Virus record (IMG/VR): IMGVR_UViG_3300025536_000016
Location: 1-63,299 of that record
Origin: a virus
Taxonomy: Duplodnaviria > Caudoviricetes
Length of the DNA stretch: 63,299 bases
Reading direction: 5' to 3' (one strand)
This document shows, one piece after another, positions 1 to 15,877 of this stretch; position 1 is the stretch's first letter; every line of letters begins with the position of its first letter. The position numbers and the translations under genes are program-made. The notes under the pieces are model-generated. The model searched no databases and was not told where the DNA came from. It worked only from the letters and a program-made list of their open reading frames with translations.

Positions 1-112
1 ATCGGAGGCTCTGACGAAAAGGCTTCTGAACAATACTGCTGGTATTTTCTGGGAGCCGATTCCCAGATTCAGGGCATCCCGCATTTCGGGCTTCGGGGCA
101 CCATCGAGGGAT
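1..112 (+). repeat. Terminal direct repeat / circular assembly overlap (copy 1)
   Basis: 1-112 matches 63188-63299 except position 12 (T vs G; TCT/TCG, both Ser). Confidence 0.95.
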
Positions 113-495
113 TCAGAACGAAGCGTCAGGATTTCAAAGGAAAACCGAATTATAAGCTCGATATTTTCCTGAATTCTGACCGGAAATACATCATCCGTTC
201 CGGAATCGAAACAATCTTTACACGAGGGCTTCTTTTGAATCTGACGGAATATCTCTCCTCCGGAAAGGATTTGAAAACTCCTCTGATTATCGGAGTGAAA
301 AGAGGAGAGGGAAACGTCGTTTTCAATCAGACCTTTGGCGATGACGACAAAGTGATTCGGGCAGATTGGGATAAAGACATGAAGCTCCTCCCTCTCATCT
401 GGGAACTTCAAAAAAATCTTGGTCAAAATCTCGATGAAGCGAATTGCGAGGAATTGAGACCGAAGGAAAAGGGAGCGAAGAAAAATGAAAAATAA
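1..495 (+). CDS. Hypothetical protein, 3' part of a gene starting at 63131 and crossing the circular junction
   Basis: Frame 1 is open from base 1 (IGGSDEKASEQYCWYF...) into the 235..495 ORF; in frame with ATG 63131, which has a GAGGATAAAG leader. Confidence 0.85.
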   Translation: MGGSDEKASEQYCWYFLGADSQIQGIPHFGLRGTIEGFRTKRQDFKGKPNYKLDIFLNSDRKYIIRSGIETIFTRGLLLNLTEYLSSGKDLKTPLIIGVKRGEGNVVFNQTFGDDDKVIRADWDKDMKLLPLIWELQKNLGQNLDEANCEELRPKEKGAKKNEK

Positions 496-922
496 TTTCC
501 CAGCACTCGATTTTCTGAATCCGGAATCAGGACTTAAACCCCCTGATTCCGAAATCATTTCGCAAGATAGAGAGGGAAATAAAATCTTCGTCAAAAATGG
601 GAAAGTCTTTCTTAAATTAATGAGCGAGGATAAACCGAGAAATATTGGTTCTCTCTCCGAAAATAAAAAGATTTTTCGATGTGAAAGAAAGAGGAGAATT
701 CATTTGCACCGGATTTCTAATTCTTATGGTTTCAATCGAGAACTTATTGAATCCCTCCCAGAATTGGAAACGATTATTTTATCGGATGAACACGACAACT
801 TTACGGTTCCGGTTTCCCTGATAAAAAACGGCGTGATTATGAATTTCAAAAATTCATCAGATGGAAATCAATATGAGCTTCAATATTTCGTTTCCCTCCA
901 AAAACTAAAAGGACAAAAATAA
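485..922 (+). CDS. Hypothetical phage protein
   Basis: 145-aa ORF overlapping the upstream gene, GGAG upstream. Confidence 0.7.
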   Translation: MKNNFPALDFLNPESGLKPPDSEIISQDREGNKIFVKNGKVFLKLMSEDKPRNIGSLSENKKIFRCERKRRIHLHRISNSYGFNRELIESLPELETIILSDEHDNFTVPVSLIKNGVIMNFKNSSDGNQYELQYFVSLQKLKGQK

Positions 923-923
923 A

Positions 924-1313
924 ATGGAACTCAAAGAACGATTAGAAACTATCATTGAGAAGCAAAGAAAATTTCAGAGATTATGCAACAAGCCCATTGA
1001 TTCAAAAGACCCATTTACCCAATCACTTTTATCTGAAACTTATCTTTTCAAACTAGTCGAGGAAGTGTTCGAGCTCAGGAAAACTTTTCCTTCTGCCCTG
1101 AATGATTCCTCCAAACATCAACCGGAAATCATCAGGGAGGAGCTATTGAAAGAGGGAGCCGATGTGATTCTCTTTTTTATTAATTTCTGTCTCGTCCATG
1201 AGGTCCAAATCGAGGAATTTTTTGATATAATCGAAAAAGTTCAAACCAATAATTTTCAGAAAAAATTCGCAACAATTAAGGAGCTAGAAAATGAAATCTT
1301 TCAGAACAGTTGA
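924..1313 (+). CDS. MazG-like / all-alpha NTP pyrophosphohydrolase (possible dCTPase/dUTPase)
   Basis: EEVFEL...KEGADVILF matches the ExxE...ExxD motif; next to TS homologue and kinase. Confidence 0.75.
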   Translation: MELKERLETIIEKQRKFQRLCNKPIDSKDPFTQSLLSETYLFKLVEEVFELRKTFPSALNDSSKHQPEIIREELLKEGADVILFFINFCLVHEVQIEEFFDIIEKVQTNNFQKKFATIKELENEIFQNS

Positions 1314-1998
1314 CCTTATGCTTCGAGAGCTGATTCCAATGCTTAAGAATCAAAATCCGATTCCCTCCAGACTAGGGAATCAGCACGAGATTCTTAACTG
1401 GAGCTATAAAATCGAAACTCCCTCCCGTCCTTTTTCCTTTCGGGAAATCAATCAGAATTATGCAAGAAATTTTGTGAACTTTATCCTCTCTTTCGACAAA
1501 CCGACTGAGATGCATGAACATCGGCAAAACCTGATGAAAATCAATCCGAAAGTTTCAAGATTTCTTGACACGGAAAAATACGAGGAAATCTTTCCGGAGG
1601 GAAATTCCGTTCTCTATCCCTCGAAATTAAAATCCGGATATTTACCAGCAATCGAGGAATTGAAAAAGCGACCGGATTCCAGACGAGCGATTGTTCCGAT
1701 GTTGACCGAATCAGATTCAAGGCTTCTCGGAGCCCTCGATGGAGGAGAATCAATTACTTTAGAATTTTCGTGCACGGAATCTTTCGCTTTCTTTATCCGG
1801 AATGAAACCTTAAATCTCCATATTAATATGCGGAGTCAAAACATGCTGGGGGTTTTCCCTTATGATTGGTTTCTCTGGGTGAATCTTTTGGAGAGGACTT
1901 GGGTTGAACATTTTCCGAAATTCCAGATGGGCGAAATCTCCTCAAATATCACATTCTGTCATATTTACGAAGAAAAGAAGCCAGAATCGGCTAAATAG
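1291..1998 (+). CDS. Thymidylate synthase homologue, probably dCMP-modifying (hydroxymethylase-like)
   Basis: RPDSRRAIV, catalytic Cys in EFSCTESF, MRSQNMLGVFPYD (Asp at the E. coli TS Asn177 position), CHIYE. Confidence 0.8.
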   Translation: MKSFRTVDLMLRELIPMLKNQNPIPSRLGNQHEILNWSYKIETPSRPFSFREINQNYARNFVNFILSFDKPTEMHEHRQNLMKINPKVSRFLDTEKYEEIFPEGNSVLYPSKLKSGYLPAIEELKKRPDSRRAIVPMLTESDSRLLGALDGGESITLEFSCTESFAFFIRNETLNLHINMRSQNMLGVFPYDWFLWVNLLERTWVEHFPKFQMGEISSNITFCHIYEEKKPESAK

Positions 1999-2087
1999 GG
2001 TTCATAGAATCGAGCCAGATGGCTTTTTATCCCTGAGTCCTTATGATGAGATTCAGGAAAAATTAAAGAATCGAGGATAAACTTAAA

Positions 2088-2597
2088 ATGAATAATCAAA
2101 TCAGACCAACTATAATTCTGGAGGGAATCGACAGAGCAGGAAAAACGACTTTTGCGAATTCCCTGATTGAAGAATTCGGCTTCGCATATTTCCATCCATC
2201 GAAGCCCATAAATCCGGAGGGATTTTTCCAGAGAGAGGAAATCAATTATCGGCTCTCCCTTTTATTTGAAAACTGCATAATTGACCGGAGCCCGATTTCA
2301 CACTTCGCCTACGATAATCGCGTAGATTTTTCTTTCTTCGAGAATTGGAGAATCAACACGGAAATTTATATTTTAATCTTTCTTCCTTCAAACCGGTTCA
2401 TCAGAGAAGCTCATCCGGATAACCAAAGAATGATTACGATAAACGAACGATATAAAATCGTCGCTTCAAAACTTCCTCATCATTGCCATAAAATCGAATA
2501 CGACAATTTTGCGGAATTGAATTCCCTCCTCGACCAGTACAGAGCACATTTTAGAAAATATAATTCCGGAGAACAAAAAGGAGCTTTCCAGAAATGA
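2088..2597 (+). CDS. Deoxynucleoside monophosphate (thymidylate-like) kinase
   Basis: ILEGIDRAGKTT P-loop and IIDRS motif of the TMPK family. Confidence 0.8.
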   Translation: MNNQIRPTIILEGIDRAGKTTFANSLIEEFGFAYFHPSKPINPEGFFQREEINYRLSLLFENCIIDRSPISHFAYDNRVDFSFFENWRINTEIYILIFLPSNRFIREAHPDNQRMITINERYKIVASKLPHHCHKIEYDNFAELNSLLDQYRAHFRKYNSGEQKGAFQK

Positions 2598-3643
2598 AAA
2601 TTTTATTAATTCCCTCTTTTTCAATGCGTTCCTATTCAGAGGAGAAATGGTTCCTCACAAGGGATGCTCACGGCAATCAAGCAGCAGCTTTCTCGAAATA
2701 TCTGAATCAATTAGGACATGATGTAGATGTTTTAATTCCCTCGAAAAATGATTTAGACACGATGCCGAATTTCTTTCAGGATTCCTTTTTGATTCCTGAT
2801 TCATTTTACTCGGTTTCCATTAAAGACCAGAGGCATAATTTCAAATCGAAAGATTTATTGAAAACTCGGTATAATGTGATATTTACGGGGCACATTGAAT
2901 ATGTCGAATTCCTCCGGAAACTTTATCCTGATTCCAGAATCATTTCAGTTTTCACTCATGGACCCCTGATGAATAGAGAATATAAGTTCCGGAACAGGAA
3001 AAATATTCTCCAATCTGATTTGGTTCTCTATAATTTCAGGAAAGATTTAATCGAGGATTTAATCAGGGAATTCGGCGAGGATAAATTCCAGGCTTGTTAT
3101 CGTTATTCTGATGTTTCCTTATCAACCTATGCTTTGGATTTGAAACCGAGAAAAAACACAATCCTGATGCCATCTCGATTAAATGACCGGACGCGTTATA
3201 ATCTCGAAAATCTGAATATATTTTTTAAGAAATTGAAGAATGACGGGTTCGAGATTTACTACACAGACCCGAATGAATCAAGTCTTTTTTTCGAGGGAAC
3301 TTTAATCCATCAGATAAATCGCTTTGAATGGCTTTATCTCCTCCGGAAAATGGACTATATTTTTATTCCCTATGATACGGAAACAACTTTTTCTGCGATT
3401 CAGAATGAAGCAATGCTGATGGGAACAAAGATTATAACCCAAAGACCGAAGCACCATTATTCGAGATTGAGTGTTCATTCTCAGTTGTATTTCGAGGAGG
3501 GAAATTTTGAGTCATTGGATAATCCGAAATTATCCGGATATGACCAGTACGATATGTCAATCGAAGCGAAAAAATCTTTCTCGATTGATTCCAATTACAC
3601 GAACAGATTATTTCTCGGAGGTGAACCAAGTGACTTCTTATAA
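2594..3643 (+). CDS. Glycosyltransferase (GT-B-like), putative DNA glycosyltransferase
   Basis: MKILLIP start, LGHDVDVLIP, C-terminal FSAIQNEAMLMGTKII resembling the GT-B EAM..G motif; context. Confidence 0.7.
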   Translation: MKILLIPSFSMRSYSEEKWFLTRDAHGNQAAAFSKYLNQLGHDVDVLIPSKNDLDTMPNFFQDSFLIPDSFYSVSIKDQRHNFKSKDLLKTRYNVIFTGHIEYVEFLRKLYPDSRIISVFTHGPLMNREYKFRNRKNILQSDLVLYNFRKDLIEDLIREFGEDKFQACYRYSDVSLSTYALDLKPRKNTILMPSRLNDRTRYNLENLNIFFKKLKNDGFEIYYTDPNESSLFFEGTLIHQINRFEWLYLLRKMDYIFIPYDTETTFSAIQNEAMLMGTKIITQRPKHHYSRLSVHSQLYFEEGNFESLDNPKLSGYDQYDMSIEAKKSFSIDSNYTNRLFLGGEPSDFL

Positions 3644-4325
3644 TCCGGAATTTTATAAATCAATCGAAAGAAGCTCTACGATTGGAGCTTTCAAAATCAT
3701 TCCTCTCGTTCTGAAAAATATCAGCGATAGAGGATGGAAAATAAAATCAATTCTTGACGTTGGCTGCGGGACTGGTTCGTGGCTGAAAGTCGCAAAAGAA
3801 TTCGATTCGGAAATCAGGATTAAAGGAATTGATTTTGATGTTCCTCCGGAATCTCTTTTGATAGAAAAAGAGGAGTTTGAAATCGTCAACCTCCGAAGCC
3901 CTTTCTTTATCGGACAATCTAACGGGTATGATTTAACAATCTCCCTCGAAGTCGCAGAACATCTGGAGGAGGAATTCTCCGATTCGTTCATTCAATCATT
4001 GACACGAACGACGGACTTGATTCTTTTTTCTGCAGCGATTCCTCATCAAAAGGGAACGAATCATGTCAATTGCCAATTTCCTTCATATTGGAAAAAGAAA
4101 TTCGTGAAATACAATTTCTTTTGTGTCGACACGATTCGCCCTTTAATCTGGAATGATGAGGATATAAAATTCTGGTACAAACAAAATATAATGATATTTT
4201 ACCGGATGAATAAGGAAAAAGATTTGAGCTTCGGGAAATTGAACGACGGGCTTTATCCTTCATTTTATGGAGCTGATTTAGTTCATCCGGAAATGTTGAA
4301 ACAAGTTATTGAGGAAAAAATATAA
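3630..4325 (+). CDS. Class I SAM-dependent methyltransferase (Methyltransf_23-like)
   Basis: ILDVGCGTG SAM motif, ISLEVAEHL, FSAAIPHQKGTNHVN; GTG start at 3630 after GGAGGTG. Confidence 0.85.
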   Translation: MTSYNPEFYKSIERSSTIGAFKIIPLVLKNISDRGWKIKSILDVGCGTGSWLKVAKEFDSEIRIKGIDFDVPPESLLIEKEEFEIVNLRSPFFIGQSNGYDLTISLEVAEHLEEEFSDSFIQSLTRTTDLILFSAAIPHQKGTNHVNCQFPSYWKKKFVKYNFFCVDTIRPLIWNDEDIKFWYKQNIMIFYRMNKEKDLSFGKLNDGLYPSFYGADLVHPEMLKQVIEEKI

Positions 4326-6392
4326 ATGATTGTAAATCAAGAAAATTTTGAGGAAGCACTTGATTTAATAACCGAGGACGAGTGCGTTGTTGATACGGAA
4401 ACCGAGGGGCTTGATGTCTGGAATAAACACAAGCAGTGCGGGATTGGGATTTGTAATTCGAGATTTGAAACGGCGTATTTTCCGTTTCGACATAAAAATA
4501 ATTTAGAGAAAATGCCGATGCTGAATTTCTTCTCTGATGAAAATGAAATGAATCTCCCTCTCGAATATCTCCCTCGTATTTTTGAACGCCTGAATCGCGT
4601 TAAAACAATAATAGGACATAACATAAAGTTCGACTTAGTCGCTCTTTTGGGAGATGGTTTTCATCTGGAGGAATCCCAGAAAATCGAGGACACCATGGCT
4701 CTCGCGAGATTATATTTTCCGGGCAGATTCGATAGGTTAAATCTGGAAACTGTCTCAATGAAAGTTTTGAATCTCGATGAAAAGTGGAAATCAATCTTTG
4801 TTCAATATTTGAAGAAAAACAAGATTGACCATAACTACGACATGGGAGACCCCGCAATCGTTGGAGATTATTGCGAAAAAGATTGTCTCAACACCGCTCG
4901 TGTAAGAATCTGGATGAGGGATAAAATATCGCGAATGGATATGGATGAGCTTTATCTTCAAGAATCGGCTGTAACGCTTGCTTATTGGGAAATGGAACAG
5001 GTCGGGCTTCCTTTCGATTCTGATTATCTGGAATCGAGAATCCCTCTTTTGAAAGATAAACTTATCCGGATTGAAGCGGATATTCATTTTCTCTGCAAAG
5101 AGCATTATGAGGAATCAGGGAAAAAATACACGAAGTTCGATATTTTATCCAATAACCAGCTCGATGAAGTAATGATGGAGCTCGGAATTGAATCTTTCAC
5201 GAAAACCCCAACTGGGCAGAATCAATGGGATGTTACTAATCTCCTCAGAATCGAACATCCGATTGCAAAAATGATTCTCGATTTCAGGGCGATGGATAAA
5301 ATGCTCGGAACTTATTTCCTCCCTCTCCGAGAATGGAAGGACGGGAGAGTTCATCCGAATATTGTTTCTGCTGGCCCGATTACAGGACGCGGGGCTTGTA
5401 GAAATCCGAATCTCCAGAATCTTTCAAGAAAGAAAATTTTCATCGAGGGAGAGGAACTGAACGAAGAAGCAATGGACGCCGTCCGAGCAATGCTTGGAGC
5501 GAAATCCGGAGTCGAGAATACGGACGTCGTTCAGGGAAAAGCCTTTTCCGGATTGATGGGCTATTCTCAATCGAAAGAGGACGACTCGGAAACCCTTTCA
5601 ACTTCGGAAGTCCGGAGATTATATATTCCTCCGGAGGATTATTATTTTTATACGATTGATTATTCTCAGATGGAAATGAGGGTTTTCGCAGATTATGTTC
5701 AGGATGAATCATTGACGGCGCTTCTGGAATCCTCAGATTTTGATTTCCATTCACACGTCGCAAAAGAAGTCTGGAATACTTCGGAAAAATCCGATTTATG
5801 GAAATTCTACCGAGTTCTCGCGAAACAGATTAATTTCGGTCTGATTTATGGAATCGGAGACGGGAAATTGGCAACTCAGATTCATAAAACAATTGATGAA
5901 GCGAGAATTTATAAAGCGGAATATTTCGCGAGATTCCCGAAAGCCCTCGGATTCATGGAGAAAGTCAAACAGACGATATGCTCAAGGGGCTGGGTAAAAA
6001 ATCGGTTCAATCGGAGATATTATATTGAAGCAGAAAAAGCTTACAAAGGAGTAAATTATCTCGTTCAGGGAACAAGCGCTGATATTGTGAAAAATAGAAT
6101 CGTTGCTTGTCAGAACTTTATTAAAAAAGAAAAACCATTATCAAAATTAGTAGTTCCCGTTCATGATGAGGCTATCTTTTTCGCCCATAAATCCGAACAT
6201 CGGCAAATCATTCCATATTTCAAAGGAATCATGGAGGAAAGATGTATACAAACATTTTTACCGACTTCGGTTGCAAGAGCGAAAACTTCATGGGCTGATA
6301 AAAAAGATATTTGTATCGAGTGTTTTGAATATTTGAAAGAGGAGAAATGTAATAATGACAAATGCGTCAGCTACAAACCAGAATCAGAATAG
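4326..6392 (+). CDS. polA: Family A DNA polymerase (3'-5' exonuclease + polymerase)
   Basis: Exo VDTETEG and GHNIKFD; TGR...PNLQN; motif A IDYSQMEMR; motif B AKQINFGLIYG; motif C VHDE. Confidence 0.97.
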   Translation: MIVNQENFEEALDLITEDECVVDTETEGLDVWNKHKQCGIGICNSRFETAYFPFRHKNNLEKMPMLNFFSDENEMNLPLEYLPRIFERLNRVKTIIGHNIKFDLVALLGDGFHLEESQKIEDTMALARLYFPGRFDRLNLETVSMKVLNLDEKWKSIFVQYLKKNKIDHNYDMGDPAIVGDYCEKDCLNTARVRIWMRDKISRMDMDELYLQESAVTLAYWEMEQVGLPFDSDYLESRIPLLKDKLIRIEADIHFLCKEHYEESGKKYTKFDILSNNQLDEVMMELGIESFTKTPTGQNQWDVTNLLRIEHPIAKMILDFRAMDKMLGTYFLPLREWKDGRVHPNIVSAGPITGRGACRNPNLQNLSRKKIFIEGEELNEEAMDAVRAMLGAKSGVENTDVVQGKAFSGLMGYSQSKEDDSETLSTSEVRRLYIPPEDYYFYTIDYSQMEMRVFADYVQDESLTALLESSDFDFHSHVAKEVWNTSEKSDLWKFYRVLAKQINFGLIYGIGDGKLATQIHKTIDEARIYKAEYFARFPKALGFMEKVKQTICSRGWVKNRFNRRYYIEAEKAYKGVNYLVQGTSADIVKNRIVACQNFIKKEKPLSKLVVPVHDEAIFFAHKSEHRQIIPYFKGIMEERCIQTFLPTSVARAKTSWADKKDICIECFEYLKEEKCNNDKCVSYKPESE

Positions 6393-6849
6393 GCTTTCAT
6401 GGGATGAATATTTTTTCTCTATTCTGGATAAATTGAAAGAAAGAGGAACATGCCCTCGGAGACAATGTTCCGCCCTGATAACGGATGATAAATTTCATAT
6501 TTTATCAACCGGTTACAATGGAGCTCCCTCCGGAATTGATAATTGCATCGAACATCCGTGCGGAGGTCAGGATGACGAAAAGGGAGACACGAGAAATTGT
6601 ATTGCCCTCCATGCGGAAGAAAACGCCGTCCTCCATCTGGAGGGAAATTCAAGATTCGCTCATTATCTTTATTGCACGAATCTCCCTTGTTTTCATTGTG
6701 CAAAGATAATTTCTCAAAGTTCAGTCAAAGTCGTAATCTATGAGGAAGATTATGCGGATAAAAGAGGTCTGGATTTACTAATCAAAAAAGGAACTCTCGT
6801 GTTTCAATATGCGAGAATAAATCGAGGAAGAATACCATGTCAAAATTAA
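6355..6849 (+). CDS. dCMP deaminase
   Basis: TGYNG, HAEENA and PCFHCAK zinc motifs. Confidence 0.93.
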   Translation: MTNASATNQNQNRLSWDEYFFSILDKLKERGTCPRRQCSALITDDKFHILSTGYNGAPSGIDNCIEHPCGGQDDEKGDTRNCIALHAEENAVLHLEGNSRFAHYLYCTNLPCFHCAKIISQSSVKVVIYEEDYADKRGLDLLIKKGTLVFQYARINRGRIPCQN

Positions 6850-7967
6850 CAATAAATCGAGAAAAACTACTAAAGAAATTGAAATTTATCGGAGGGATTC
6901 AAAAGGAACAGGACGCGAAAATCCTGATTCGAGGATTCAGGGACGAGTTATTCGATGGAAAACAACTTGAGTTTATTTCCTATCAGAATAATTTTATTGC
7001 AAAGAATTATTTCATGAATGAGGAATTTTTCAGTTACGACGAGGAGTTTGAATTTATGCTTCCCGTGAAAAAATTCATTCAATTAATTTCCCTGATGAAT
7101 CAGGAAGAAATAAAGATTTCGATTTCACCGACAAAGATTTTAATCGAGTCTGGAAAGTCGAAACATTCAATGAATCTTTCTCTGGAGAAATTTCCGGAAA
7201 TTCATAACGAGATTTCATTCAATGAAATAATCTCCATTAATTCCGAGAAATTGAAGCAGCAGCTTGAAATGACTTCGCTCTCCATGAGTAAAATCGAATC
7301 GGCTCAATTTCAGCTCCGAGCGTTCGAGATGAGGATTACACCGGATTATCTTCAATTCTCCTCTTGTGATGGACGACAAGCCTCAAGAGCACGGCTTCAT
7401 GATGGATTTGAGTTATCAAATGATGAAGAAATAAAAATAACTTTTTCCTTTGAATCATTGGACAAAATTAAATCTTTCCTGATGGACAAGAATTCTGAGA
7501 TTGAAATTTCTCTCTCTCCGTCTTATATTAAATTTAATTCCGGAAAATCCGAGTTATTTATTAACCAAGGATTTTCAAACTTTCCTGATGTAGATAAACT
7601 ATTTTTTGATACTCCAGCAATGAAGGTCGAAATTGACAACGGTGAATTCTCAAGATTATTGAGATTGGTCAAAATCTCTGAGGACGCGCTTAATCAACAG
7701 ATAGTGTTCCGAATGAAAGATAACAGGTTTTTTATCGAACTTCGTTCCTCATTCGGAGAGGGACAGGAATTTTTTACAATTGATTATCCGAAAGAGGAAA
7801 GAAAATTTTCTTTGAACGATAAATCCCTAATTGAATATTTAATGAAGTTTCCGGAAAGAAAATCAAGCCTTAAAATATTTGATGACATTAGATTTCCGGT
7901 AAATTTGCTAATGGAGATGGACAATCAAGATTTTGAATTATCCCTCTTTCCTTTAAGGACTGATTAG
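6837..7967 (+). CDS. dnaN: DNA polymerase III beta subunit-like sliding clamp
   Basis: 376 aa; EKFPEI, SCDGRQAS (cf. ATDGHRLA), NFPDVDKL, terminal LFPLR. Confidence 0.85.
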   Translation: MSKLTINREKLLKKLKFIGGIQKEQDAKILIRGFRDELFDGKQLEFISYQNNFIAKNYFMNEEFFSYDEEFEFMLPVKKFIQLISLMNQEEIKISISPTKILIESGKSKHSMNLSLEKFPEIHNEISFNEIISINSEKLKQQLEMTSLSMSKIESAQFQLRAFEMRITPDYLQFSSCDGRQASRARLHDGFELSNDEEIKITFSFESLDKIKSFLMDKNSEIEISLSPSYIKFNSGKSELFINQGFSNFPDVDKLFFDTPAMKVEIDNGEFSRLLRLVKISEDALNQQIVFRMKDNRFFIELRSSFGEGQEFFTIDYPKEERKFSLNDKSLIEYLMKFPERKSSLKIFDDIRFPVNLLMEMDNQDFELSLFPLRTD

Positions 7968-7980
7968 TCTATAATAGTTT

Positions 7981-8025
7981 CGATGTCTACCAAACATCGG
8001 TTGAAAAATCCGAACCACGAATCGG
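7981..8025 (+). ncRNA. Candidate two-hairpin antisense RNA (C4/CI-like architecture)
   Basis: Hairpins CGATGT-ctaccaa-ACATCG and CCGA-accacgaa-TCGG after TATAAT (7970-7975); loops complementary to TGGTA (8091) and TTCGTGG (8119). Confidence 0.5.
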
Positions 8026-8049
8026 CACATATTATTTTTAGATTTACGT

Positions 8050-8169
8050 ATAGCCTGTAAATTTAAGTTAATGCTTCAAACTTCTAAGGGTGGTACCTCA
8101 GAGGATAAAGAGGTTTGATTCGTGGACTCTTTTGGAGCATTAACTTATTTTTAACAGGCTATGTTTTTT
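8050..8169 (+). terminator. Long hairpin plus U-tract in the leader of the initiator gene (attenuator-like)
   Basis: ATAGCCTGT/ACAGGCTAT and TAAGTTAATGCT/AGCATTAACTTA arms followed by GTTTTTT. Confidence 0.55.
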
Positions 8170-8200
8170 CTACTCTACTTTTTATAGGATAAAAAATAAT

Positions 8201-9034
8201 ATGTCAGCTACAGTCGTAGTCCCGAATCAACAAGATATTGATTTAGACTTTGAATTGGAGAATCTTTCCGAGCCATTCGTAATGATTCCCAATCTCGTTG
8301 CTCAAAATCTTGATATGTCCCTCGAAGCACTCGGAGCTTTAACAAGAATGCTTTCTTATTCAAAGAATTTCAAATTCAAGCTATCTTGGCTCCAGAAAGC
8401 GTGGGGCATCGGGCGTGATAAGCTAAAAAATATCATCAAGGAATTGAAGAATCTCGGATTCATCAAATTCGTTTCAAAAAGAACCCCTGATAACACGAAG
8501 TTCTCCGGATGGAAATGGTTTCTCTCCAATAAACCGGTGTTCAAATCAAAGGGAATCGAAAAGGAAATCCAGAAAGACGGATTTTCAGTATCTCTGGAGG
8601 AAGATAAAAACCAGAGTGACGAGATTTCAGACTCTCTGAATATCAGTAACTCATTAAGAAAGACTAGATTGAAAGATAAGAAGAAAAATAATAAAAAGAA
8701 AACTTTCATCTCTCCGGATTTCGAGTTAACACATGTTCTGATTGAATGGACTCAGAAAACCTTTGAAAAGAAAATCCCTCTCAAAGAATTGATATTTCAA
8801 ACAGATTTATTTATTCAGGAATATTTAGACTCCGGAATCGAAAGAACCTCATGGACACGGTCTTGGATGACTTGGATAAAAAACGCCGTTTCATGGGATA
8901 AGATAAATTATGAAAATCTTGATGAATCCGAGAAAGTTTTAACCCCGCCGAAAGATGTAAATCAATATATTGTGAAAAGACCGAAAGATTGGTGGAAAAC
9001 GAAACCGAAGGCTGAGGAGGAACTGCCGCTCTAA
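8201..9034 (+). CDS. Replication initiator-like protein with N-terminal winged HTH
   Basis: FVMIPN...LDMSLEALGAL...GRDKLKNIIKELKNLGFI; C-terminal WTRSWMTWIKNA; directly upstream of the helicase. Confidence 0.75.
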   Translation: MSATVVVPNQQDIDLDFELENLSEPFVMIPNLVAQNLDMSLEALGALTRMLSYSKNFKFKLSWLQKAWGIGRDKLKNIIKELKNLGFIKFVSKRTPDNTKFSGWKWFLSNKPVFKSKGIEKEIQKDGFSVSLEEDKNQSDEISDSLNISNSLRKTRLKDKKKNNKKKTFISPDFELTHVLIEWTQKTFEKKIPLKELIFQTDLFIQEYLDSGIERTSWTRSWMTWIKNAVSWDKINYENLDESEKVLTPPKDVNQYIVKRPKDWWKTKPKAEEELPL

Positions 9035-9128
9035 TGCTGTTTCCTTCGAGCAGGATGGATTTTCTCCCTCTGGAATGATTCATCCATCGAATCTAAGTTT
9101 TATAGTCAGAAATCGAGGATAAAAAAGA

Positions 9129-11237
9129 ATGAATAAATTAGATGAAATATTGAGTCATCTGAATAATGTTAAGCCGAGAGGAGAGGATTTTACAGCGCAA
9201 TGTCCAATACATGCTGATAGTAAAAATTCTTTCTCGATATTCAAAGCTTATGATGGGAATTATATTCCATTTTGCCATGCTGGTTGTTCCCTTGAGGAAA
9301 TCAGAGATTGGCTTAAATCCCTGAATCTTAATTTCAAATTCAAAGATAAGGGAATAACAAATATTTACCAATATTATTCTCCGGATGGAGAGGAGACATT
9401 TCAATGCTGCCGTTATTTCCCGAAAGATTTTAAGCAGAGAAGAAAATCCGGCGATAAGTGGGTCTGGGATTTGAAGGGCGTAGAATTGACTTTATACCGG
9501 CTTCCGGAATTGATAACCTCTGAAATATCGAGGGCGGTCTTTATTACGGAGGGAGAAAAGGATTGCGATAGATTGATTTCAAATAGCTTGATTTCCGTTT
9601 CTCCTCCTCTCGGAGCAGGGAAATGGAAGGAAACTTATAATAAGTTCCTGAAAGACAGGACGGTGTATATTGTTGAGGATAACGACTCGGAGGAAAAGAA
9701 ATTTGCCGGTCAGAAAGGAGCCCTCAAGATTGCAGAATCCCTCGTCAAAGATGGGCATAAAAATCTAAAAATTATTTCCTTCAAAGAATATCAGGGAATA
9801 AAAGATGTTTCGGATTTTCTGGATTCTCATTCAATGGATGAGCTAAAAGAATTAATTAAAAAGACTCCAAAATTTGAATTCTCCCAGATTGAAGAAAAAC
9901 CAGTAATAAAACCGGAAGCTCATTATCAATTACCCGCAGCTCCGCTTCTCGAATTGGAGATAATAAATTCATGTTTGGCGGATAATACACTTTTCCTCCG
10001 AGCCTATGAGTTTATTGATTTCAATTCTTTTTATCTTCCAATCCATAAAAGAGCCTGGCAAATTGCGACTGCTTCATACGAACACCAAGCTTTCGTTGAT
10101 AAGAATCTTGTCCTCTCGAAAATGATTGATGAGGGAAAGGAATCATTAAGGTTATTCGAGGAGAAATTAACAGGAGTATGTCTTTCGTATTATCAGTTTG
10201 AAATCTATTGTCGAGATATTCAAATGAAATCCCGTCTCCGGAATCTCATTAAATTATCTGATGATTTCTCCCAGAAAGCACGGGAGGCTCCAAGCGAAGA
10301 ATTATTCGAGCAATTTGAACAACAGGTCTTTTCTTTGACAAATTCTCTGGAGGAAAATCCGGACGGAGATTTTGAGGATTTAGGACAGGCGGTTTCTGAT
10401 ACGATTCATAAGGCTGAAAGTTTTACGGGAGAACTTCTCGGAATCTCCTCCGGATATACAGACCTTGATGAAAAGACTTCAGGGCTTCAGAAAGAGGATT
10501 TGATTATTATTGCAGCCCGTCCTTCGATGGGTAAAACTTCTCTTGCGACGGACATCATATCGAACACAATTCCGGATAATCTGAAAGTCGCTTTCTTTAC
10601 TTTGGAGATGTCCAAAGAACAAGTCGTCAATAAAATCATTTCTCAAAATCTGGAGATTCCTGCCCAGAGAATTAAAAAGTGGGATTTATCATTTCAGGAA
10701 AAAGAAGATGTTCAGAATTTCAAAAGTCAGATTTTAGATTCAAATATTAAAATCAATTTCAAACCCGGCATCAACATCGTTCAGATGAAAAGAAGCCTCC
10801 GGAGATTGGTTTCCAAAATCGGACCTCTGGATTTAATCGTAATTGATTATCTTCAGCTCATGGGAACTTATGGAAAATATGAATCCAAAGAAAAAGCGGT
10901 CTCCGATATATCGAAAGGATTGAAGGAAGTTGCTCGTGAGTTCAAGTGCCCAGTAATCGCTCTCTCACAACTGAATAGAAAACCGGAGGAAAGAAAGGGA
11001 GACCATAAACCCATCATGAGTGACTTGAGAGAATCCGGAGCAATCGAGCAGGATGCAGATATTATCATCTTTCTTTATCGAGAGGATTATTACAAAAAGG
11101 ACACGGAAAATCAGGGTGTGACGGAGGGAATTATTTCCAAAAATCGGCAAGGACCGACGGGAAGCTTTTATCTCCAGTTCATCAAGGAATATACTCATTT
11201 TGAGAACTCGACTTTTCAAAATGATGGTTCATTCTAA
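9129..11237 (+). CDS. dnaB: Primase-helicase fusion (Zn finger, TOPRIM, DnaB)
   Basis: CPIH...CHAGC; ITEGEKD, DND, KDVSDF; AARPSMGKT, IDYLQLM, LSQLNR, SDLRESGAIEQDAD. Confidence 0.93.
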   Translation: MNKLDEILSHLNNVKPRGEDFTAQCPIHADSKNSFSIFKAYDGNYIPFCHAGCSLEEIRDWLKSLNLNFKFKDKGITNIYQYYSPDGEETFQCCRYFPKDFKQRRKSGDKWVWDLKGVELTLYRLPELITSEISRAVFITEGEKDCDRLISNSLISVSPPLGAGKWKETYNKFLKDRTVYIVEDNDSEEKKFAGQKGALKIAESLVKDGHKNLKIISFKEYQGIKDVSDFLDSHSMDELKELIKKTPKFEFSQIEEKPVIKPEAHYQLPAAPLLELEIINSCLADNTLFLRAYEFIDFNSFYLPIHKRAWQIATASYEHQAFVDKNLVLSKMIDEGKESLRLFEEKLTGVCLSYYQFEIYCRDIQMKSRLRNLIKLSDDFSQKAREAPSEELFEQFEQQVFSLTNSLEENPDGDFEDLGQAVSDTIHKAESFTGELLGISSGYTDLDEKTSGLQKEDLIIIAARPSMGKTSLATDIISNTIPDNLKVAFFTLEMSKEQVVNKIISQNLEIPAQRIKKWDLSFQEKEDVQNFKSQILDSNIKINFKPGINIVQMKRSLRRLVSKIGPLDLIVIDYLQLMGTYGKYESKEKAVSDISKGLKEVAREFKCPVIALSQLNRKPEERKGDHKPIMSDLRESGAIEQDADIIIFLYREDYYKKDTENQGVTEGIISKNRQGPTGSFYLQFIKEYTHFENSTFQNDGSF

Positions 11238-11290
11238 GTGAAACAAATGTTTCATGAGAGAAACAGATTCCGGAGGATTTCTGATGAAAA

Positions 11291-11470
11291 CTTAGAAAGT
11301 GTTAAAAATTGACAATTTAGGGAAAATTAAATGATTGAAAAAACAAGCACTTATAGAGATGAAAAATCGAGTAATATCATTACATGGATTATGAGTCAAA
11401 AAGCCATCTGACTCGAACTATCGAGAAAGCGTTTTATTTTCAATAACTTATGGACACTATTTTTTGTTTC
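11291..11470. repeat. ~180-bp non-coding element, copy A (homologous to 48154-48332)
   Basis: Colinear shared blocks: AAAGTGTTAAAAATTGACAATT, IHF-like sites, CATGGATTAT, CTCGAACTATCGAGAAAGC. Confidence 0.8.
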
Positions 11471-11510
11471 ATAAAAATAGTCTAAAATTTGATAAATCGA
11501 GGTATAAATT

Positions 11511-11972
11511 ATGACGATAAAAAGATATTTACAACAGGATAAATTAGGGAATATTTCCTCCGGAGAAAAAGAATTTCTCCTCAATCATGTGTGCGATACG
11601 ATGGATAAAGTTCGGGCTCGTTTCGAGGAATGTATCCGCCTGAATTTCGGAAAAAAGAAAGTCCTCTATGTTTCAACAATGGTTTCAATTATTGAAAAAC
11701 ATTTCGTCTGGAATATTTCCGTCCGGATGGGAATGCGTTTCAAATCCTCCAGAGAATTAAAAAAAGTTTCTAATTGGGTTCCGGAGGATAAAAGAAAAAT
11801 TTTTGAATTGATGGATGAATACTATAAATATGTCGGCTCAAAAAATCTGGAATTCGAGAGTCGGCTTGAATATGAAACCTCCGTTCACTTCAATAAAAAA
11901 TTGAGCTATGAGGAAATAGAATCTCTTTACGACGATACGAAAAATAAATTTGAAAATGGGGTAATCGAATAA
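11511..11972 (+). CDS. Hypothetical protein
   Basis: 153-aa ORF with AATCGAGGTATAAA leader. Confidence 0.75.
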   Translation: MTIKRYLQQDKLGNISSGEKEFLLNHVCDTMDKVRARFEECIRLNFGKKKVLYVSTMVSIIEKHFVWNISVRMGMRFKSSRELKKVSNWVPEDKRKIFELMDEYYKYVGSKNLEFESRLEYETSVHFNKKLSYEEIESLYDDTKNKFENGVIE

Positions 11973-12424
11973 TGAGCTACTCTGAATCATGGCTTGATGA
12001 GATTTTGAAAAAAAATCCTCAATTGAAAGTAAAAGAGGATAGATTGATAAATCCTCCGGTTATTCACGCCGCTCCATCTGCTCAACCCAAGGGAATGAAT
12101 AAACTTGAATTGAGATATAGTTATTTTTTACAGAATCAATTTCTCGGAGGAGAAATTATTAAATGGATGCACGAGCCGTTTAATCTCAGATTGGCAAATC
12201 CTAAGTGCCATTATAAAATTGATTTCCTCGTGATAAATCTCCAGATGGAAATTGAGCTTCATGAAACCAAGGGCGAATGGGTAGATGGAGATGCTCTTGT
12301 GAAATTCAAAGTCGCTGCAAAAGAGTTTCCTTTCTTTCGCTGGAAGTGGGTAACAGAGGAACTTGGAGTCTTTGTTTATCGCGAACTCTGGAACGGTTCG
12401 TGGTTGAAAGAATCTCAGAAATAG
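11972..12424 (+). CDS. PD-(D/E)xK endonuclease (DUF1064-like, possible resolvase)
   Basis: MNKLELRY, YKIDFLV, HETKG motifs. Confidence 0.65.
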   Translation: MSYSESWLDEILKKNPQLKVKEDRLINPPVIHAAPSAQPKGMNKLELRYSYFLQNQFLGGEIIKWMHEPFNLRLANPKCHYKIDFLVINLQMEIELHETKGEWVDGDALVKFKVAAKEFPFFRWKWVTEELGVFVYRELWNGSWLKESQK

Positions 12425-12514
12425 TATAATATCTTTTTGAATCTGAGAAAGAATTGAAGTTTAATTCCTCTCTCGGTTTCCCTACCTGATAATCAATTAT
12501 CCTCGATTTATGGT

Positions 12515-12553
12515 AAAAGGGCTTTCAGATGAAATTTATCTGAAAGCCTTTTC
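12515..12553 (+). terminator. Intrinsic terminator-like hairpin
   Basis: AAAAGGGCTTTCAGAT / ATCTGAAAGCCTTTT. Confidence 0.6.
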
Positions 12554-12563
12554 GGGTTGTTGA

Positions 12564-12616
12564 TGTTAAAATTTCACATTTTTTATCTTGAATTAAAATT
12601 CAATCTCAGTTAAAAT
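12564..12616 (+). promoter_or_regulatory. Operator TGTTA-N5-TCACA plus sigma70-like promoter
   Basis: Palindrome 12564-12578; TTGAAT(12588)-17 bp-TAAAAT(12611). Confidence 0.6.
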
Positions 12617-12661
12617 TTTTCATTGGAAGAAATTCCAAGATTAAGAATCGAGGATAAAAGA

Positions 12662-13441
12662 ATGAAAAAAGAATTTATACGAGGAGTTTTAGAGTTAACT
12701 AACGGGCCGATTTCCCTGAATGATTTCGAGAAAACGGAACATCCGGATATTTATAAGCTGAAGGAAAAGGCAGCATTAAGTGGGCATGAGTGGGTTTATT
12801 TCAATGGGTTTGATTATATTGAAATTAATCCTCTCCTCTATGGAGCCTTTCAGGAATTGAACCAGCTTGATAATTTCAATCAATTTGATAATGTTTCCGA
12901 TAAGGAACTTTATGTTGCGAAGAATCACGTCAAGAAATATATTGATGAAGGAAACTGGGTTGACGCGATGCTTTTCATTTCGGAAAGAGTTGGTTTTATG
13001 GTTTATCTGGATAATTTCGATAAAATTCCGGATGACCAGAAATATGATGCTTTTATTAATCTTTATACAAGATGTGATTTCGGTTTCCATCTTTTGAAAG
13101 ACCATTATCGAAAGATATTTGATTACGCGCATCTCTCGAAAGAAAGAGAGGAAAGATTGAATAAATTAAAAGGGAAATTCGGAGAGAAAAAGAAGTTCCG
13201 GATTTTTCACGGCGTTTCCTATGATTTCCCTGTTTATGATTATTACTCGTGGACTTTGAATGAAATGACCGCTCAATTCTTCGCTTATAGATATTCCAAT
13301 TTCGGTGAAATCCTACAAAAAGATATTTTATTCAAAGACGCCGTCGACTACTTATCTGATAGAAATGAGGAGGAGATTCTTTTTTCTCCATCAGATACAT
13401 TTTTGAAACTTATGTTTAGAAACAAGGAGGAGGGAGAATAA
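12662..13441 (+). CDS. Hypothetical protein
   Basis: ATG 12662 after AATCGAGGATAAAAG leader. Confidence 0.75.
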   Translation: MKKEFIRGVLELTNGPISLNDFEKTEHPDIYKLKEKAALSGHEWVYFNGFDYIEINPLLYGAFQELNQLDNFNQFDNVSDKELYVAKNHVKKYIDEGNWVDAMLFISERVGFMVYLDNFDKIPDDQKYDAFINLYTRCDFGFHLLKDHYRKIFDYAHLSKEREERLNKLKGKFGEKKKFRIFHGVSYDFPVYDYYSWTLNEMTAQFFAYRYSNFGEILQKDILFKDAVDYLSDRNEEEILFSPSDTFLKLMFRNKEEGE

Positions 13442-13911
13442 TGTCAGAATTTGTTCATGATATGGGAACTGATTTTCAAGTCTTTCTTGATTCCCTCGAT
13501 AATAAACCAAAATACACGGAGCAGGAGCTTTTGGAAAAGATGGGCTATGAAGCTTATCAATTCACACAGGCATCGAATTTCCTGATTAAATATTCCTCAT
13601 CCATTCAAAAGAGGAGAGTTAAAATCAGGACGATACTTCTTGCGAAACGACCGGATTTAATCCAGAATCCGAAATTAAAAGCCCATCTGGAAAAATGCTT
13701 CGAGGATATAAAATTCAAACCAACAAAAGAGGATATTGATTCTTTTATTGAATTGGAACTCGGAGACATTCATTCCCAGATGCAGAAGGCTTCGGAAAGA
13801 ATGAAAGCTTCTGAAAAACTCCATGATATGTATCAGAAGCAACTTTCGTGGTACCAGTCAGTTTTGAAAAGAGAAACCGCCGAATGGATGGCTTCCAATC
13901 GAGGAACTTAA
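13441..13911 (+). CDS. Helical protein, weak resemblance to UvsY-like recombination mediators
   Basis: TKEDIDSFIE followed by coiled coil; function uncertain. Confidence 0.35.
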   Translation: MSEFVHDMGTDFQVFLDSLDNKPKYTEQELLEKMGYEAYQFTQASNFLIKYSSSIQKRRVKIRTILLAKRPDLIQNPKLKAHLEKCFEDIKFKPTKEDIDSFIELELGDIHSQMQKASERMKASEKLHDMYQKQLSWYQSVLKRETAEWMASNRGT

Positions 13912-13913
13912 TC

Positions 13914-14312
13914 ATGAGAAAATCGAAAATCACTGATATGCCATTACTCGATTTCCTGAAAGAAATTTCTCCGGATGAAGTTATCCTTCATCCTCATCAG
14001 GAAAAATTACTGGACGCGATTTCTGAGGGAAAGAGATTGGTTATAAATCAACCTCGGAGATATGGAACTGCTGTCCTTGATGAATTAATCAGGGAAAGAA
14101 CAAATGGCGAATCGAAATATAGACCAATCGGAAAATATCCGGTTTTCTGTATCGTCAGTCGTAAGGATGGAAAAGTTGTTTCTCATTGGTCATGTGAGGA
14201 ACCCGATGTCGAGGAGTTCAAAAATAGTTCGATTAAAAGAGGGAATCTTGTGGAAGTCTTTCCGCACGATGAATACTGGGAAAAATATAAAAGAGGAGAA
14301 TTCAATAAATGA
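13914..14312 (+). CDS. Hypothetical protein with a degenerate terminase-ATPase-like N-terminus
   Basis: LHPHQEKLL...LVINQPRRYGT; ATG after GAGGA. Confidence 0.55.
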   Translation: MRKSKITDMPLLDFLKEISPDEVILHPHQEKLLDAISEGKRLVINQPRRYGTAVLDELIRERTNGESKYRPIGKYPVFCIVSRKDGKVVSHWSCEEPDVEEFKNSSIKRGNLVEVFPHDEYWEKYKRGEFNK

Positions 14313-15121
14313 AAATCAAGGTTTTAGACAATGGATACGTAAGATTGGTGGAATCTTATGGCAGAGGCGATGCCGGAATCATGGAGGCAGGAATCATCGA
14401 AGCAGCGAGACAATCTACGCAGGGAAATTTCAGGGGCTGGGATATTTGGCACTGCGGGACTTGCGGAAATAATTTCAAATCGAAAATCAATCATGACATT
14501 TCCGGAGGACTCGATGAGTTGAGTTCAAGTTCATTGGTCATCTGTAAACAGAAGAATTGGTCGAATGATGAAAAACTTCTCGGATTTCTTTTTAATAATG
14601 AACCGAAGCATTCGACACCTTTTGAATTTTGCGGATTGATTATTGAAGTTCAAGCTCCGATTTTCGTATTCAGGGAATGGCACCGGCACCGGACTCAAAG
14701 CTATAATGAGATGAGTGCAAGATATGCGCCTCTCCCTGACATGAATTATGTTCCGGATAAAGAAAGATTATTCCTTACTCAGAATGAGAATAAACAGGCT
14801 CAAGCAATATCCGGAAGTAAGCAACTCGATGATAATTATGCAGAAGGATGGTTGAGCGAATTGGCTATTTTATATGAACGTGCTGAAAAGGTTTATCAAT
14901 ATGGGCTTGATGTAGGGATTCCGAAAGAAGTCGCCCGAGTCGTCCTCCCAGTAGGAAGATATTCAAAGATGAGAGCTTCTGCTAATCTCCTCAATTGGTT
15001 GAAATTCTTATCTTTGAGAATGGACTCAAAGGCTCAATGGGAAATCAGACAATATGCGAATGCTGTTGCTGAAATCATTTCAAATGAATTTCCTAAAACT
15101 TGGTCTCAATTCAAAAAATAA
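14309..15121 (+). CDS. thyX: Flavin-dependent thymidylate synthase
   Basis: HSTPFE, WHRHRTQSYNEMSARY ThyX signature, AQWEIRQYA. Confidence 0.95.
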   Translation: MKIKVLDNGYVRLVESYGRGDAGIMEAGIIEAARQSTQGNFRGWDIWHCGTCGNNFKSKINHDISGGLDELSSSSLVICKQKNWSNDEKLLGFLFNNEPKHSTPFEFCGLIIEVQAPIFVFREWHRHRTQSYNEMSARYAPLPDMNYVPDKERLFLTQNENKQAQAISGSKQLDDNYAEGWLSELAILYERAEKVYQYGLDVGIPKEVARVVLPVGRYSKMRASANLLNWLKFLSLRMDSKAQWEIRQYANAVAEIISNEFPKTWSQFKK

Positions 15122-15135
15122 TCCGGAGAAATTCA

Positions 15136-15537: not shown

Positions 15538-15538
15538 T

Positions 15539-15877
15539 ATGCCAACGAAAAGAAAAACAAAATATAGTTCATCTCGCTCAATCTCATTGACGGATTTGAA
15601 ATATCGTAACCGCCTGAAAGTCCGTTCAAAGAATCGAGATAATAAAATCGAGGATTTGAGGGAGTGTCCCTCCTGTCATTCAAAATCCGGTTATTATCAT
15701 GAGTCCTTTCATGAATCCATCGAGAGAGAAATAAGTTCTTTCCGGAAAAATTCAAAATCGAAAATCGAGATTGAAGTTAAATCCGAAATCTGGAAATCAA
15801 ATATTTATTTCTGTCTCGAATGCCATACTCCGATTGCTTATCATCGAGAGGAGGAGAAAAAGGAAGAAAACAAATAA
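15539..15877 (+). CDS. Hypothetical Zn-ribbon protein
   Basis: CPSC...CLEC pairs. Confidence 0.6.
   Translation: MPTKRKTKYSSSRSISLTDLKYRNRLKVRSKNRDNKIEDLRECPSCHSKSGYYHESFHESIEREISSFRKNSKSKIEIEVKSEIWKSNIYFCLECHTPIAYHREEEKKEENK

Follow-up and report, generated by a model that had tools for sequence, protein, structure and literature searches.

We analysed a stretch of viral DNA of 63,299 nucleotides (Duplodnaviria, Caudoviricetes), which is the whole of the linear IMG/VR virus record IMGVR_UViG_3300025536_000016 (63,299 bp; hereafter the window) and whose completeness is estimated at 59% by CheckV. At its left end, five open reading frames (ORFs) on the + strand, overlapping or abutting, lead up to the gene for a family A DNA polymerase (PolA). 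They encode a MazG-like pyrophosphohydrolase, a thymidylate synthase (TS) homologue, a nucleotide kinase, a glycosyltransferase and an S-adenosylmethionine (SAM)-dependent methyltransferase. Judged by homology, this cassette is the conserved synthase-kinase-glycosyltransferase core of the glycosyl-5-hydroxycytosine pathway and not a hydroxymethylcytosine system of the T4 type. Together with PolA, a dCMP deaminase and the flavin-dependent thymidylate synthase ThyX it would, on balance, constitute a pathway replacing cytosine with O-glycosylated 5-hydroxycytosine (5hoC), the sugar of which may then be O-methylated. The original prediction for this DNA had proposed a C5-modified dCTP, a sugar attached by a GT-B enzyme and possibly a methyl group on that sugar. 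This outline fits the homologies found here, but the T4 model behind it does not (Asn at position 169 of the TS homologue; poor profile matches to T4 gp1 and the T4 beta-glucosyltransferase BGT, see below).

The five genes (positions 924-4325) form one tightly coupled operon ending at the start codon of PolA (4326, the base after the last stop). All of them were found on the + strand as a contiguous run abutting the polymerase gene, as originally described; the long ORFs of the window are in fact nearly all on this strand.

The TS homologue (1291-1998, +; 23-nt overlap with the MazG-like gene) carries the signature of 5-hydroxy-dCMP (5hodCMP) synthases. The protein matches Pfam Thymidylat_synt (E 8.8e-7, above the cut-off) and phrog_160 (2.7e-17), and shares C146, R166 and S167 with E. 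coli ThyA, T4 gp42 and RB69 gp48 in an alignment of the four proteins. Three further positions (E. coli ThyA numbering) differ among these proteins. Position 143 is Leu in ThyA, Asp in gp42 and Glu in both gp48 and the window protein; position 169 is Asp in ThyA and gp42 and Asn in gp48 and the window protein; position 177, which determines dCMP specificity, is Asn in ThyA and Asp in the other three (N177D). The window motifs 'LEFSC' and 'MRSQN' carry E143 and N169, respectively. According to the available part of the study by Lee et al. (NAR 2026, PMC13326640), to which all statements from this source refer, RB69 gp48 and DLP3 gp80 make 5-hydroxy-dCMP with O2 and flavin, D169N is present in all such enzymes and is diagnostic of 5hodCMP synthases, and nine of nine chosen D169N homologues (from IMG/VR and elsewhere) made 5hodC in vivo. 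As the window protein possesses N169 like gp48, we predict 5-hydroxycytosine, with the sugar in ether linkage, and not hydroxymethylcytosine as the base. From these signature residues, the TS homologue very probably follows the 5-hydroxycytosine route.

With the TS alignment, 25 synthase loci were found in IMG/VR, most of them close relatives of one another. N169 and D177 are present in 28 of 28 proteins (those of the 25 loci, RB69, Acj9 and the window), which are not mutually independent because many of the loci are isolate genomes with the size of Straboviridae genomes. A search of viral contigs with the single TS protein returned no relatives. The best relatives in the PDB are 9iqu, 9iqc and 9ir2 ('thymidylate synthase', 234-238 aa; E 1.1e-18), and the 9iq series also contains 9iqz, 'phage HY126 glycosyltransferase'. 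A literature search with the codes 9iqu, 9iqc and 9ir2 gave nothing relevant. A flavin-containing crystal structure of the HY126 enzyme is attributed to He et al. 2026 by Lee et al. (PMC13326640), and 9iqu is presumably this enzyme.

The TS homologue could, as an alternative, be a folate-dependent dCMP hydroxymethylase as in T4, which would lead to glycosyl-hydroxymethylcytosine with the methyl group on the sugar. Indeed, T4 gp42 is a member of the same superfamily (PDB 1b49, E 1.4e-4), an acidic residue 143 and N177D are also found in hydroxymethylases, and many database records label its relatives 'dCMP hydroxymethylase'. However, these labels are older than the work of 2025-26, residue 169 is the Asn of RB69 gp48 rather than the Asp of gp42, and the BLASTP score to gp48 (86.7 bits, 30% identity over 210 aa) is twice that to gp42 (42 bits, 26% over 116 aa). 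Furthermore, the kinase and the glycosyltransferase are homologous to proteins of 5hoC clusters and not to gp1 or BGT. We consider the T4-type pathway very improbable, and the T4-like hydroxymethylcytosine chemistry that had been proposed for this phage is probably mistaken, with N169 in the TS homologue as in gp48 and D169 retained in gp42.

The kinase gene (2088-2597, +) encodes a thymidylate kinase (TMPK)-like protein of the RB69 gp45/DLP3 gp78 type. Used alone, it has matches only at the level of the P-loop (Thymidylate_kin 7.1e-5, below the cut-off; phrog_761 2.6e-11); solved structures likewise match only the P-loop, and a word-based search for homologues returned only the window kinase itself. 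A small alignment (A9) of this protein with its relatives in two further contigs, L088 and L003, was compared by hhalign with RB69 p045 and Acj9 p087, giving a probability of 98.4% (E 5e-15) over 125 columns that include the DRxxxS..Y segment. The controls against the kinase alignment gave 22 columns restricted to the P-loop for E. coli Tmk and a probability of 19% for T4 gp1. In addition, the kinase hidden Markov model (HMM) matches an ORF beside the TS or glycosyltransferase gene in 24 of the 25 synthase loci. On these profile comparisons the window kinase is homologous to the RB69 gp45-type cluster kinase and not to T4 gp1 or E. coli Tmk. The deoxynucleoside monophosphate (dNMP) kinase of the original prediction is thus retained as a relative of nucleotide kinases, but of the gp45 type and not of the gp1 type suggested by the T4 comparison. 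No gp1-type dNMP kinase was seen among the 63 window ORFs scanned (13 at the replication end, 1-9034, and 50 others) of this 59% complete record.

The glycosyltransferase gene (2594-3643, +) overlaps the kinase gene by 4 nt (ATGA). The sequence matches of its product are below threshold (Glyco_transf_5, E 0.0026). No match was found by tblastn against 50,697 phage records, no relatives in viral contigs with the single protein or the alignment A3, and only chance-level matches with the profile against PDB sequences. A word-based search of 5.8 billion proteins returned three proteins, one of them the window's own, and a profile search of 1.84 billion representatives returned 73 at E <= 1e-3; among 67 aligned relatives, Pfam matches were to Glyco_trans_1_4 (3), Glycos_transf_1 (2) and Glyco_transf_4 (2). 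The AlphaFold2 model computed from the 67-sequence alignment has a predicted local distance difference test score (pLDDT) of 88.7 and a predicted template modelling score (pTM) of 0.89; a first model from three sequences (pLDDT 53.7) was poor and was not used. The top Foldseek match of the model is 5zer, a tetrahydrobiopterin glucosyltransferase (BGluT; E 9.3e-10), followed by PglA, MshA and PimA, and BshA is also among the structural neighbours. VIA-align gave Z scores of 23.3 for 6kih (root-mean-square deviation 3.7, 323 aligned), 23.2 for 9v0l and 8dqd, 22.8 for 3mbo, 22.7 for 7qsg, 22.4 for 2gej and 22.3 for 3c4q. The same structural templates are listed by Lee et al. for their DNA glycosyltransferases (PMC13326640). 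Among viral models, the best match is to an Acinetobacter phage KARL-1 protein that is uncharacterised (E 6e-12). As modelled, the enzyme clearly has a GT4-like GT-B fold, which bears out the GT-B assignment made from the sequence.

The relationship to known DNA modification clusters is specific. The hhalign comparison of the glycosyltransferase family with Acj9 p088, whose ORF is flanked by those of the TS homologue and the kinase, gave a probability of 99.7% (E 4e-26, 283 columns), and the two halves of RB69 gp46:47 gave 98.1% (p047) and 97.6% (p046). The window glycosyltransferase is not BGT-like (0.5% in the control with BGT); T4 alpha-glucosyltransferase (AGT) appeared only as a generic GT-B fold match (Foldseek rank 30). 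In hmmsearch with the wide family alignment (A2), the ORF immediately after the synthase was matched in 24 of the 25 loci, the 25th being a 7.8-kb fragment. A narrow HMM made from six sequences gave 21 matches among 1,704 ORFs at E <= 10, namely three members of its own family, 18 synthase-adjacent glycosyltransferases and nothing else. The N-terminal motif MKIL.IP.FSMRSY...RD is common to both groups. By these profile matches the window enzyme is homologous to the synthase-adjacent 'first' sugar transferase of 5hoC phages, and it probably glycosylates the 5-hydroxycytosine base.

The glycosyltransferase-kinase pair stands beside a replicative polymerase in three lineages (the window, L003 and L088). 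In the metagenome contig L003, which comes from a second, only distantly related PolA phage, the gene order kinase, glycosyltransferase, PolA, methyltransferase, clamp, DnaD, DnaB is conserved, with the methyltransferase following PolA; identities to the window proteins are 33% for the glycosyltransferase, 48% for PolA and 37% for the methyltransferase. The gp45-type kinase of this contig (L003:70-1092) is fused to a C-terminal domain of ~150 aa without Pfam match, and the ligand of this extra domain could bear on the question of whether the kinase substrate is a nucleotide or DNA. The IMG/VR contig L088 (138,900 bp) possesses a tightly coupled gene run at 7362-15807, encoding a dCMP deaminase, the kinase (29% identity), a radical-SAM/SPASM protein, a protein of the uracil-DNA glycosylase (UDG) superfamily, the glycosyltransferase (30%), a U32-peptidase-like protein and the Pol III alpha subunit. 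Neither a TS homologue nor the methyltransferase was found within 10 kb in L088. U32 proteins have been linked to C5 hydroxylation of RNA pyrimidines (Lee et al., PMC13326640, cite pathways of this kind), and the L088 run may represent a second, TS-independent route to a glycosylated hydroxypyrimidine in DNA. Note that the RB69 5hoC cluster also has a U32-like 'peptidase', p050 (PMC13326640).

One could argue that synthase and kinase make plain 5-hydroxycytosine DNA and that the glycosyltransferase and the methyltransferase act elsewhere, for instance on proteins of the virion or on glycans of the host surface. Structure comparison places the window enzyme among glycosyltransferases of the small-molecule and glycan type, and the viral homologues of the methyltransferase usually stand in glycan-type clusters (with GT2 enzymes, hexapeptide acetyltransferases, PglD_N and CmcI-type methylases) with no nucleotide-metabolism genes nearby. 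This separation of functions is nevertheless improbable: in 24 of 25 loci a specific homologue of the window glycosyltransferase is encoded next to the 5hodCMP synthase, in all three lineages (window, L003, L088) the glycosyltransferase abuts the replicative polymerase, and in the window its translation is coupled to that of the kinase.

The same product might also be reached in a different order, with the sugar (perhaps also the methyl group) added to 5-hydroxy-dCMP, the gp45-type kinase phosphorylating the glycosylated nucleotide and PolA incorporating it premodified. According to Lee et al., single glycosyltransferases were inactive on 5hoC-DNA and the level of the first glycosylation was left open, and RB69 and DLP3 possess a gp1-type dNMP kinase, active on 5hodCMP, in addition to the gp45-type kinase, which always stands beside the first glycosyltransferase (PMC13326640); the 4-nt overlap of the kinase and glycosyltransferase genes in the window agrees with such a coupling. 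On the other side, the known phage DNA glycosylations with a settled mechanism all act after replication (established knowledge; Lee et al., PMC13326640) and the later arabinose additions happen on DNA (PMC13326640). Furthermore, the scanned ORFs of the window, which lacks 41% of the genome, include no gp1-type kinase, and the gp45-type kinase may simply be the only dNMP kinase of this phage. We regard premodification at the nucleotide level as unlikely, though less so than a glycosyltransferase acting on other targets, and retain glycosylation of 5-hydroxycytosine in DNA for the pathway below.

The fifth gene encodes a class I SAM-dependent methyltransferase (Methyltransf_23, E 4.7e-5) and occupies 3630-4325 (+; alternative start GTG 3621; ORF listed from 3471). 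A GGAGG sequence is located at 3617-3621, and GTG occurs in frame at 3621 and at 3630. In the alignment the first residue of the homologues falls on 3630, and the database entry P0074 (234 aa) begins at GTG 3621. Judged by these alignments, translation almost certainly starts at GTG 3630 or GTG 3621 and not at 3471. At E <= 0.1 the only Pfam matches are Methyltransf_23, Methyltransf_25, Methyltransf_12, Methyltransf_31, Methyltransf_11 and FtsJ. No match to N6_N4_Mtase, MethyltransfD12, DNA_methylase or any DNA-methylase Pfam family was found at this threshold, in agreement with the earlier description of the protein as devoid of DNA-methyltransferase motifs. In NCBIfam, Hen1 and methylases of small molecules and sugars are matched weakly.

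At least 1,359 relatives of this methyltransferase, cellular and viral, were found at E <= 1e-3. Conserved motifs of the family are DVGCG, SLEVAEH, FSAAIP.Q.G..H.N and VHPE; across 43 sequences DVGCG and E107-x-x-E110-H111 are invariant, and so is H145. The best matches of the family profile in the PDB are to the methyltransferase domain of bacterial Hen1 (3jwi, E 2.9e-9; 3jwg, 3.2e-9), with which the E-V-x-E-H segment aligns. In HEN1, the ligands of the Mg2+ ion are Glu796, Glu799, His800 and His860, and the same ion holds the ribose by its 2' and 3' hydroxyls (available part of PMC10781085). Viral stretches encoding relatives number 317, and the genomic context was read in the best 80. The 145 ORFs flanking the methyltransferase in 75 of these loci (the other five, with no ORF called over the match, were left out of the tally) include 23 GT2, 9 Glyco_tranf_2_4, 8 Methyltransf_24, 5 hexapeptide transferase, 5 PglD_N, 4 RMNT_CmcI and 3 GT25 proteins. 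GT2 was found in only 4 of 106 ORFs at least six ORFs away in the same loci (odds ratio 4.8, Fisher p 0.0019). The family therefore appears to be a habitual partner of glycosyltransferases, which favours a sugar hydroxyl as its target. For the particular assignment, O-methylation of the DNA-borne sugar by the window enzyme, homology and context leave the balance almost even, with doubt slightly prevailing.

A hydroxyl of the base would be a different target. In tRNA, formation of a 5-hydroxypyrimidine and its subsequent O-methylation are known (ho5U to mo5U). With this precedent, an O-methyltransferase-like class I enzyme encoded directly after the glycosyltransferase and before PolA might convert 5-hydroxycytosine, in the nucleotide or in DNA, to 5-methoxycytosine at some or all sites, competing with glycosylation or replacing it. 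The two enzymes would then compete for a single hydroxyl, and yet both are kept in L003; moreover, the methyltransferase family is enriched beside glycosyltransferases and has no Pfam match to other O-methyltransferase families at E <= 0.1. The E-x-x-E-H metal site of Hen1 binds a vicinal diol (PMC10781085), which 5hoC does not have. The literature found on 5-methoxycytosine concerns, judging by titles, synthetic or modified RNA, with none on phage DNA. We consider 5-methoxycytosine a poor candidate, as improbable as the action of the two transferases outside DNA.

By tblastn, the methyltransferase matched among the phage records only Caulobacter phage Cr30 (one phage with two records; 28% identity, with 55% of the query covered). 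This relative (L092:7878-8495; hhalign probability 99.3%) is located inside a T4-like replication module, between a gp59-like loader and the single-stranded DNA-binding protein. Its 343-aa neighbour was considered and is not a glycosyltransferase of the window's family.

The first gene of the operon (924-1313, +) encodes an all-alpha nucleoside triphosphate pyrophosphohydrolase of the MazG-like type. Its Pfam and PHROG scores are weak (PRA-PH, E 7e-4, below the cut-off; phrog_671, 5.5e-5; phrog_173, 2.5e-3), as are its PDB matches 2q73 and 2q5z, in which EExxE and ExxD-like motifs are aligned, and the pairwise comparison with RB69 gp56 is marginal (E 0.017). We infer that this protein is a dCTPase that clears dCTP and yields dCMP. 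In the proposed pathway this dCTP to dCMP conversion would be the first step. The TS homologue would then hydroxylate dCMP at C5 to 5-hydroxy-dCMP with flavin and O2 rather than folate, as its signature residues and its homology to tested enzymes suggest. The gp45-type kinase together with a host nucleoside diphosphate kinase would raise the modified nucleotide to the triphosphate, and PolA (4326-6392, +; DNA_pol_A 2.5e-67; 3'-5' exonuclease domain DNA_pol_A_exo1 6.3e-7) would incorporate it. Next, the GT4-like, probably retaining glycosyltransferase would place a sugar on the 5-hydroxyl through an ether bond, using a host nucleotide-sugar. Finally, and this is the weakest step, suggested by context and motif, the Hen1-like, probably metal-dependent methyltransferase would O-methylate a hydroxyl of the sugar.

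The supply of dTMP would be provided by dCMP deaminase (6355-6849, +; dCMP_cyt_deam_1 5.2e-15; phrog_174 1.9e-36), converting dCMP to dUMP, and ThyX (14309-15121, +; Thy1 1.4e-37). The presence of a separate ThyX had been noted before and is confirmed; the deaminase is an addition to the earlier gene list. For the nucleotide-sugar donor, no Pfam or PHROG family of a synthesis gene (arabinose-5-P isomerase, HAD phosphatase, kinase/pyrophosphorylase, UDP-Gal mutase) was found in the 63 scanned ORFs, and a host nucleotide-sugar is therefore the probable donor.

Several points weigh against this pathway. Every enzymatic step in it is read from homology, and the scores for the kinase (Pfam, PDB) and for the MazG-like protein are weak. 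For the 'first' glycosyltransferases, activity on 5hoC-DNA could not be shown by Lee et al., for whom the acceptor of the first sugar may be either the mononucleotide or DNA (PMC13326640). The absence of donor genes holds for the scanned ORFs and not for the whole phage, 41% of whose genome is unseen. A synthase in L003 is unconfirmed because the contig ends just 5' of the kinase. The methyltransferase is the most exposed member. H145 is only putatively equivalent to the fourth metal ligand of Hen1, the alignment with which covers the E-x-x-E-H segment, and the enrichment of neighbours points to a glycan context in general, not to DNA. The methyltransferase HMM matched in none of the 25 synthase loci, and homologues of the MazG-like protein, TS, kinase and glycosyltransferase were found in none of the best 80 viral methyltransferase loci, so the link between methyltransferase and pathway rests on two related contigs, the window and L003. 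It is thus possible, if rather doubtful, that the virion DNA carries O-methylated glycosyl-5-hydroxycytosine made by a Hen1-like, metal-dependent O-methyltransferase acting on the DNA- or nucleotide-borne sugar.

Downstream of PolA follow the dCMP deaminase, a beta clamp, a DnaD-like protein and a primase-DnaB fusion, with ThyX further on. As a DNA query against the phage records, 924-6392 gave no match. The only return of a scan of genome contigs was L087 (6,615 bp), which is 100% identical to window positions ~2490-9030, spans the end of the kinase gene through the DnaD-like gene and is filed in a genome record titled as a Bacteroidetes metagenome-assembled genome. Neither end of the window was found in the genome that holds L087, and this binning is weak evidence of the host. 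A Bacteroidetes host would be surprising in view of the strong Shine-Dalgarno sites of the window.

An imperfect direct repeat of ~55 nt (84% identity) is present at 2035-2092 and 60026-60078. It ends in AATCGAGGATAAA, with the start codon of the kinase just 3' of one copy and that of an ORF near 60074 just 3' of the other, and is probably a shared translation-initiation or regulatory element; a generic promoter scan at the two copies showed nothing special. Beside the second copy, near the right end of the record, a further P-loop kinase-like ORF is located at 59466-59975 (Zeta_toxin 9.7e-15, AAA_33 3.2e-10), which could encode another nucleotide, polynucleotide or sugar-nucleotide kinase. 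Between the replication and packaging modules, 19143-20063 and 22465-23388 encode a protein with a CxxCxxCC zinc/iron-chelating domain (Pfam 5.7e-5) and an AAA ATPase (5e-10), respectively.

Glycosyl-5-hydroxycytosine pathways have been described for Escherichia phage RB69, Acinetobacter phage DLP3 (Straboviridae) and Rhizobium phage RL38JI (also written RL38J1), with kinase, first glycosyltransferase and synthase being p045, p046:47 and p048 in RB69, gp78, gp79 and gp80 in DLP3, and gp214, gp215 and gp216 in RL38J1 (PMC13326640). The window shares with these phages a TS homologue with L143E/D169N/N177D, a TMPK-like kinase and a GT4-like GT-B glycosyltransferase, which are homologous to theirs, mutually adjacent and next to the DNA polymerase region. 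In contrast to them, the window phage is not T4-like (it has PolA, DnaB-primase and ThyX), its cassette is a compact one of five genes, and its glycosyltransferase and kinase are very divergent. Among the scanned ORFs it has no arabinose or galactofuranose donor genes, second or third glycosyltransferase or gp1-type kinase, and it adds a SAM methyltransferase that is absent from 25 of 25 such loci. With the glucosyl-hydroxymethylcytosine pathway of T4 (gp56, gp42, gp1, alpha- and beta-glucosyltransferases) it shares the logic of depleting dCTP, modifying dCMP by a TS-family enzyme, phosphorylating, polymerising and glycosylating. However, gp42 retains D169 where the window protein has Asn, the window kinase has no relationship to gp1, nor the glycosyltransferase to BGT, and the linkage in the window phage would be a direct C5-O-sugar ether without CH2. 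Hen1/HENMT1, the 2'-O-methyltransferases of the 3'-terminal ribose of RNA, resemble the window methyltransferase in the class I SAM fold, the DxGCG motif I and the aligned E-x-x-E-H. Unlike in Hen1, accessory domains are absent, the similarity of the family profile covers only ~100 residues (E 2.9e-9), and the genomic context of the family consists of glycosyltransferases and not of RNA repair.

The view that a methyl-glycosylated base would be unusual in such a phage stands only in part: as this kind of pathway is already published (PMC13326640), only the methyltransferase and the phage lineage are unusual. The literature searched yielded no account of natural DNA with a methylated sugar or with naturally occurring 5-methoxycytosine; the available text of Lee et al. 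2026 (PMC13326640) contains no mention of methyltransferase or methoxy, and the preprint of Pyle et al. no mention of O-methyl or methylated. The available part of PMC13229309 lists O-methyltransferase domains among the genes co-occurring with phage 5mYOX clusters, and tailoring enzymes in DNA-glycan clusters are therefore already in circulation as an idea, based on genome mining only.

The recognition of glycosylated 5-hydroxycytosine dates only from 2025-26 and has been confined to large phages, T4-like ones and Pootjesviridae. The cassette described here would show that the synthase-kinase-glycosyltransferase core has moved into an unrelated PolA lineage, widening the range of this chemistry. 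With its 3.4 kb and its seeming independence of dedicated donor-synthesis genes, it is directly testable in E. coli, and with the gp45-type kinase as the only phage dNMP kinase in view it offers a simple system for the question of whether the first sugar is added to the nucleotide or to DNA. If the methyltransferase methylates the sugar, this would be an added tailoring step of a DNA glycan, providing a new enzyme for DNA labelling as well as a new modified base for tests of restriction, CRISPR and type IV defence systems. In that case an enzyme tailoring DNA glycans by methylation would be known for the first time, its product would be a natural DNA base not yet described, and the cassette would represent a minimal, portable five-gene route to a three-layer hypermodification of cytosine that needs only a host nucleotide-sugar and SAM.

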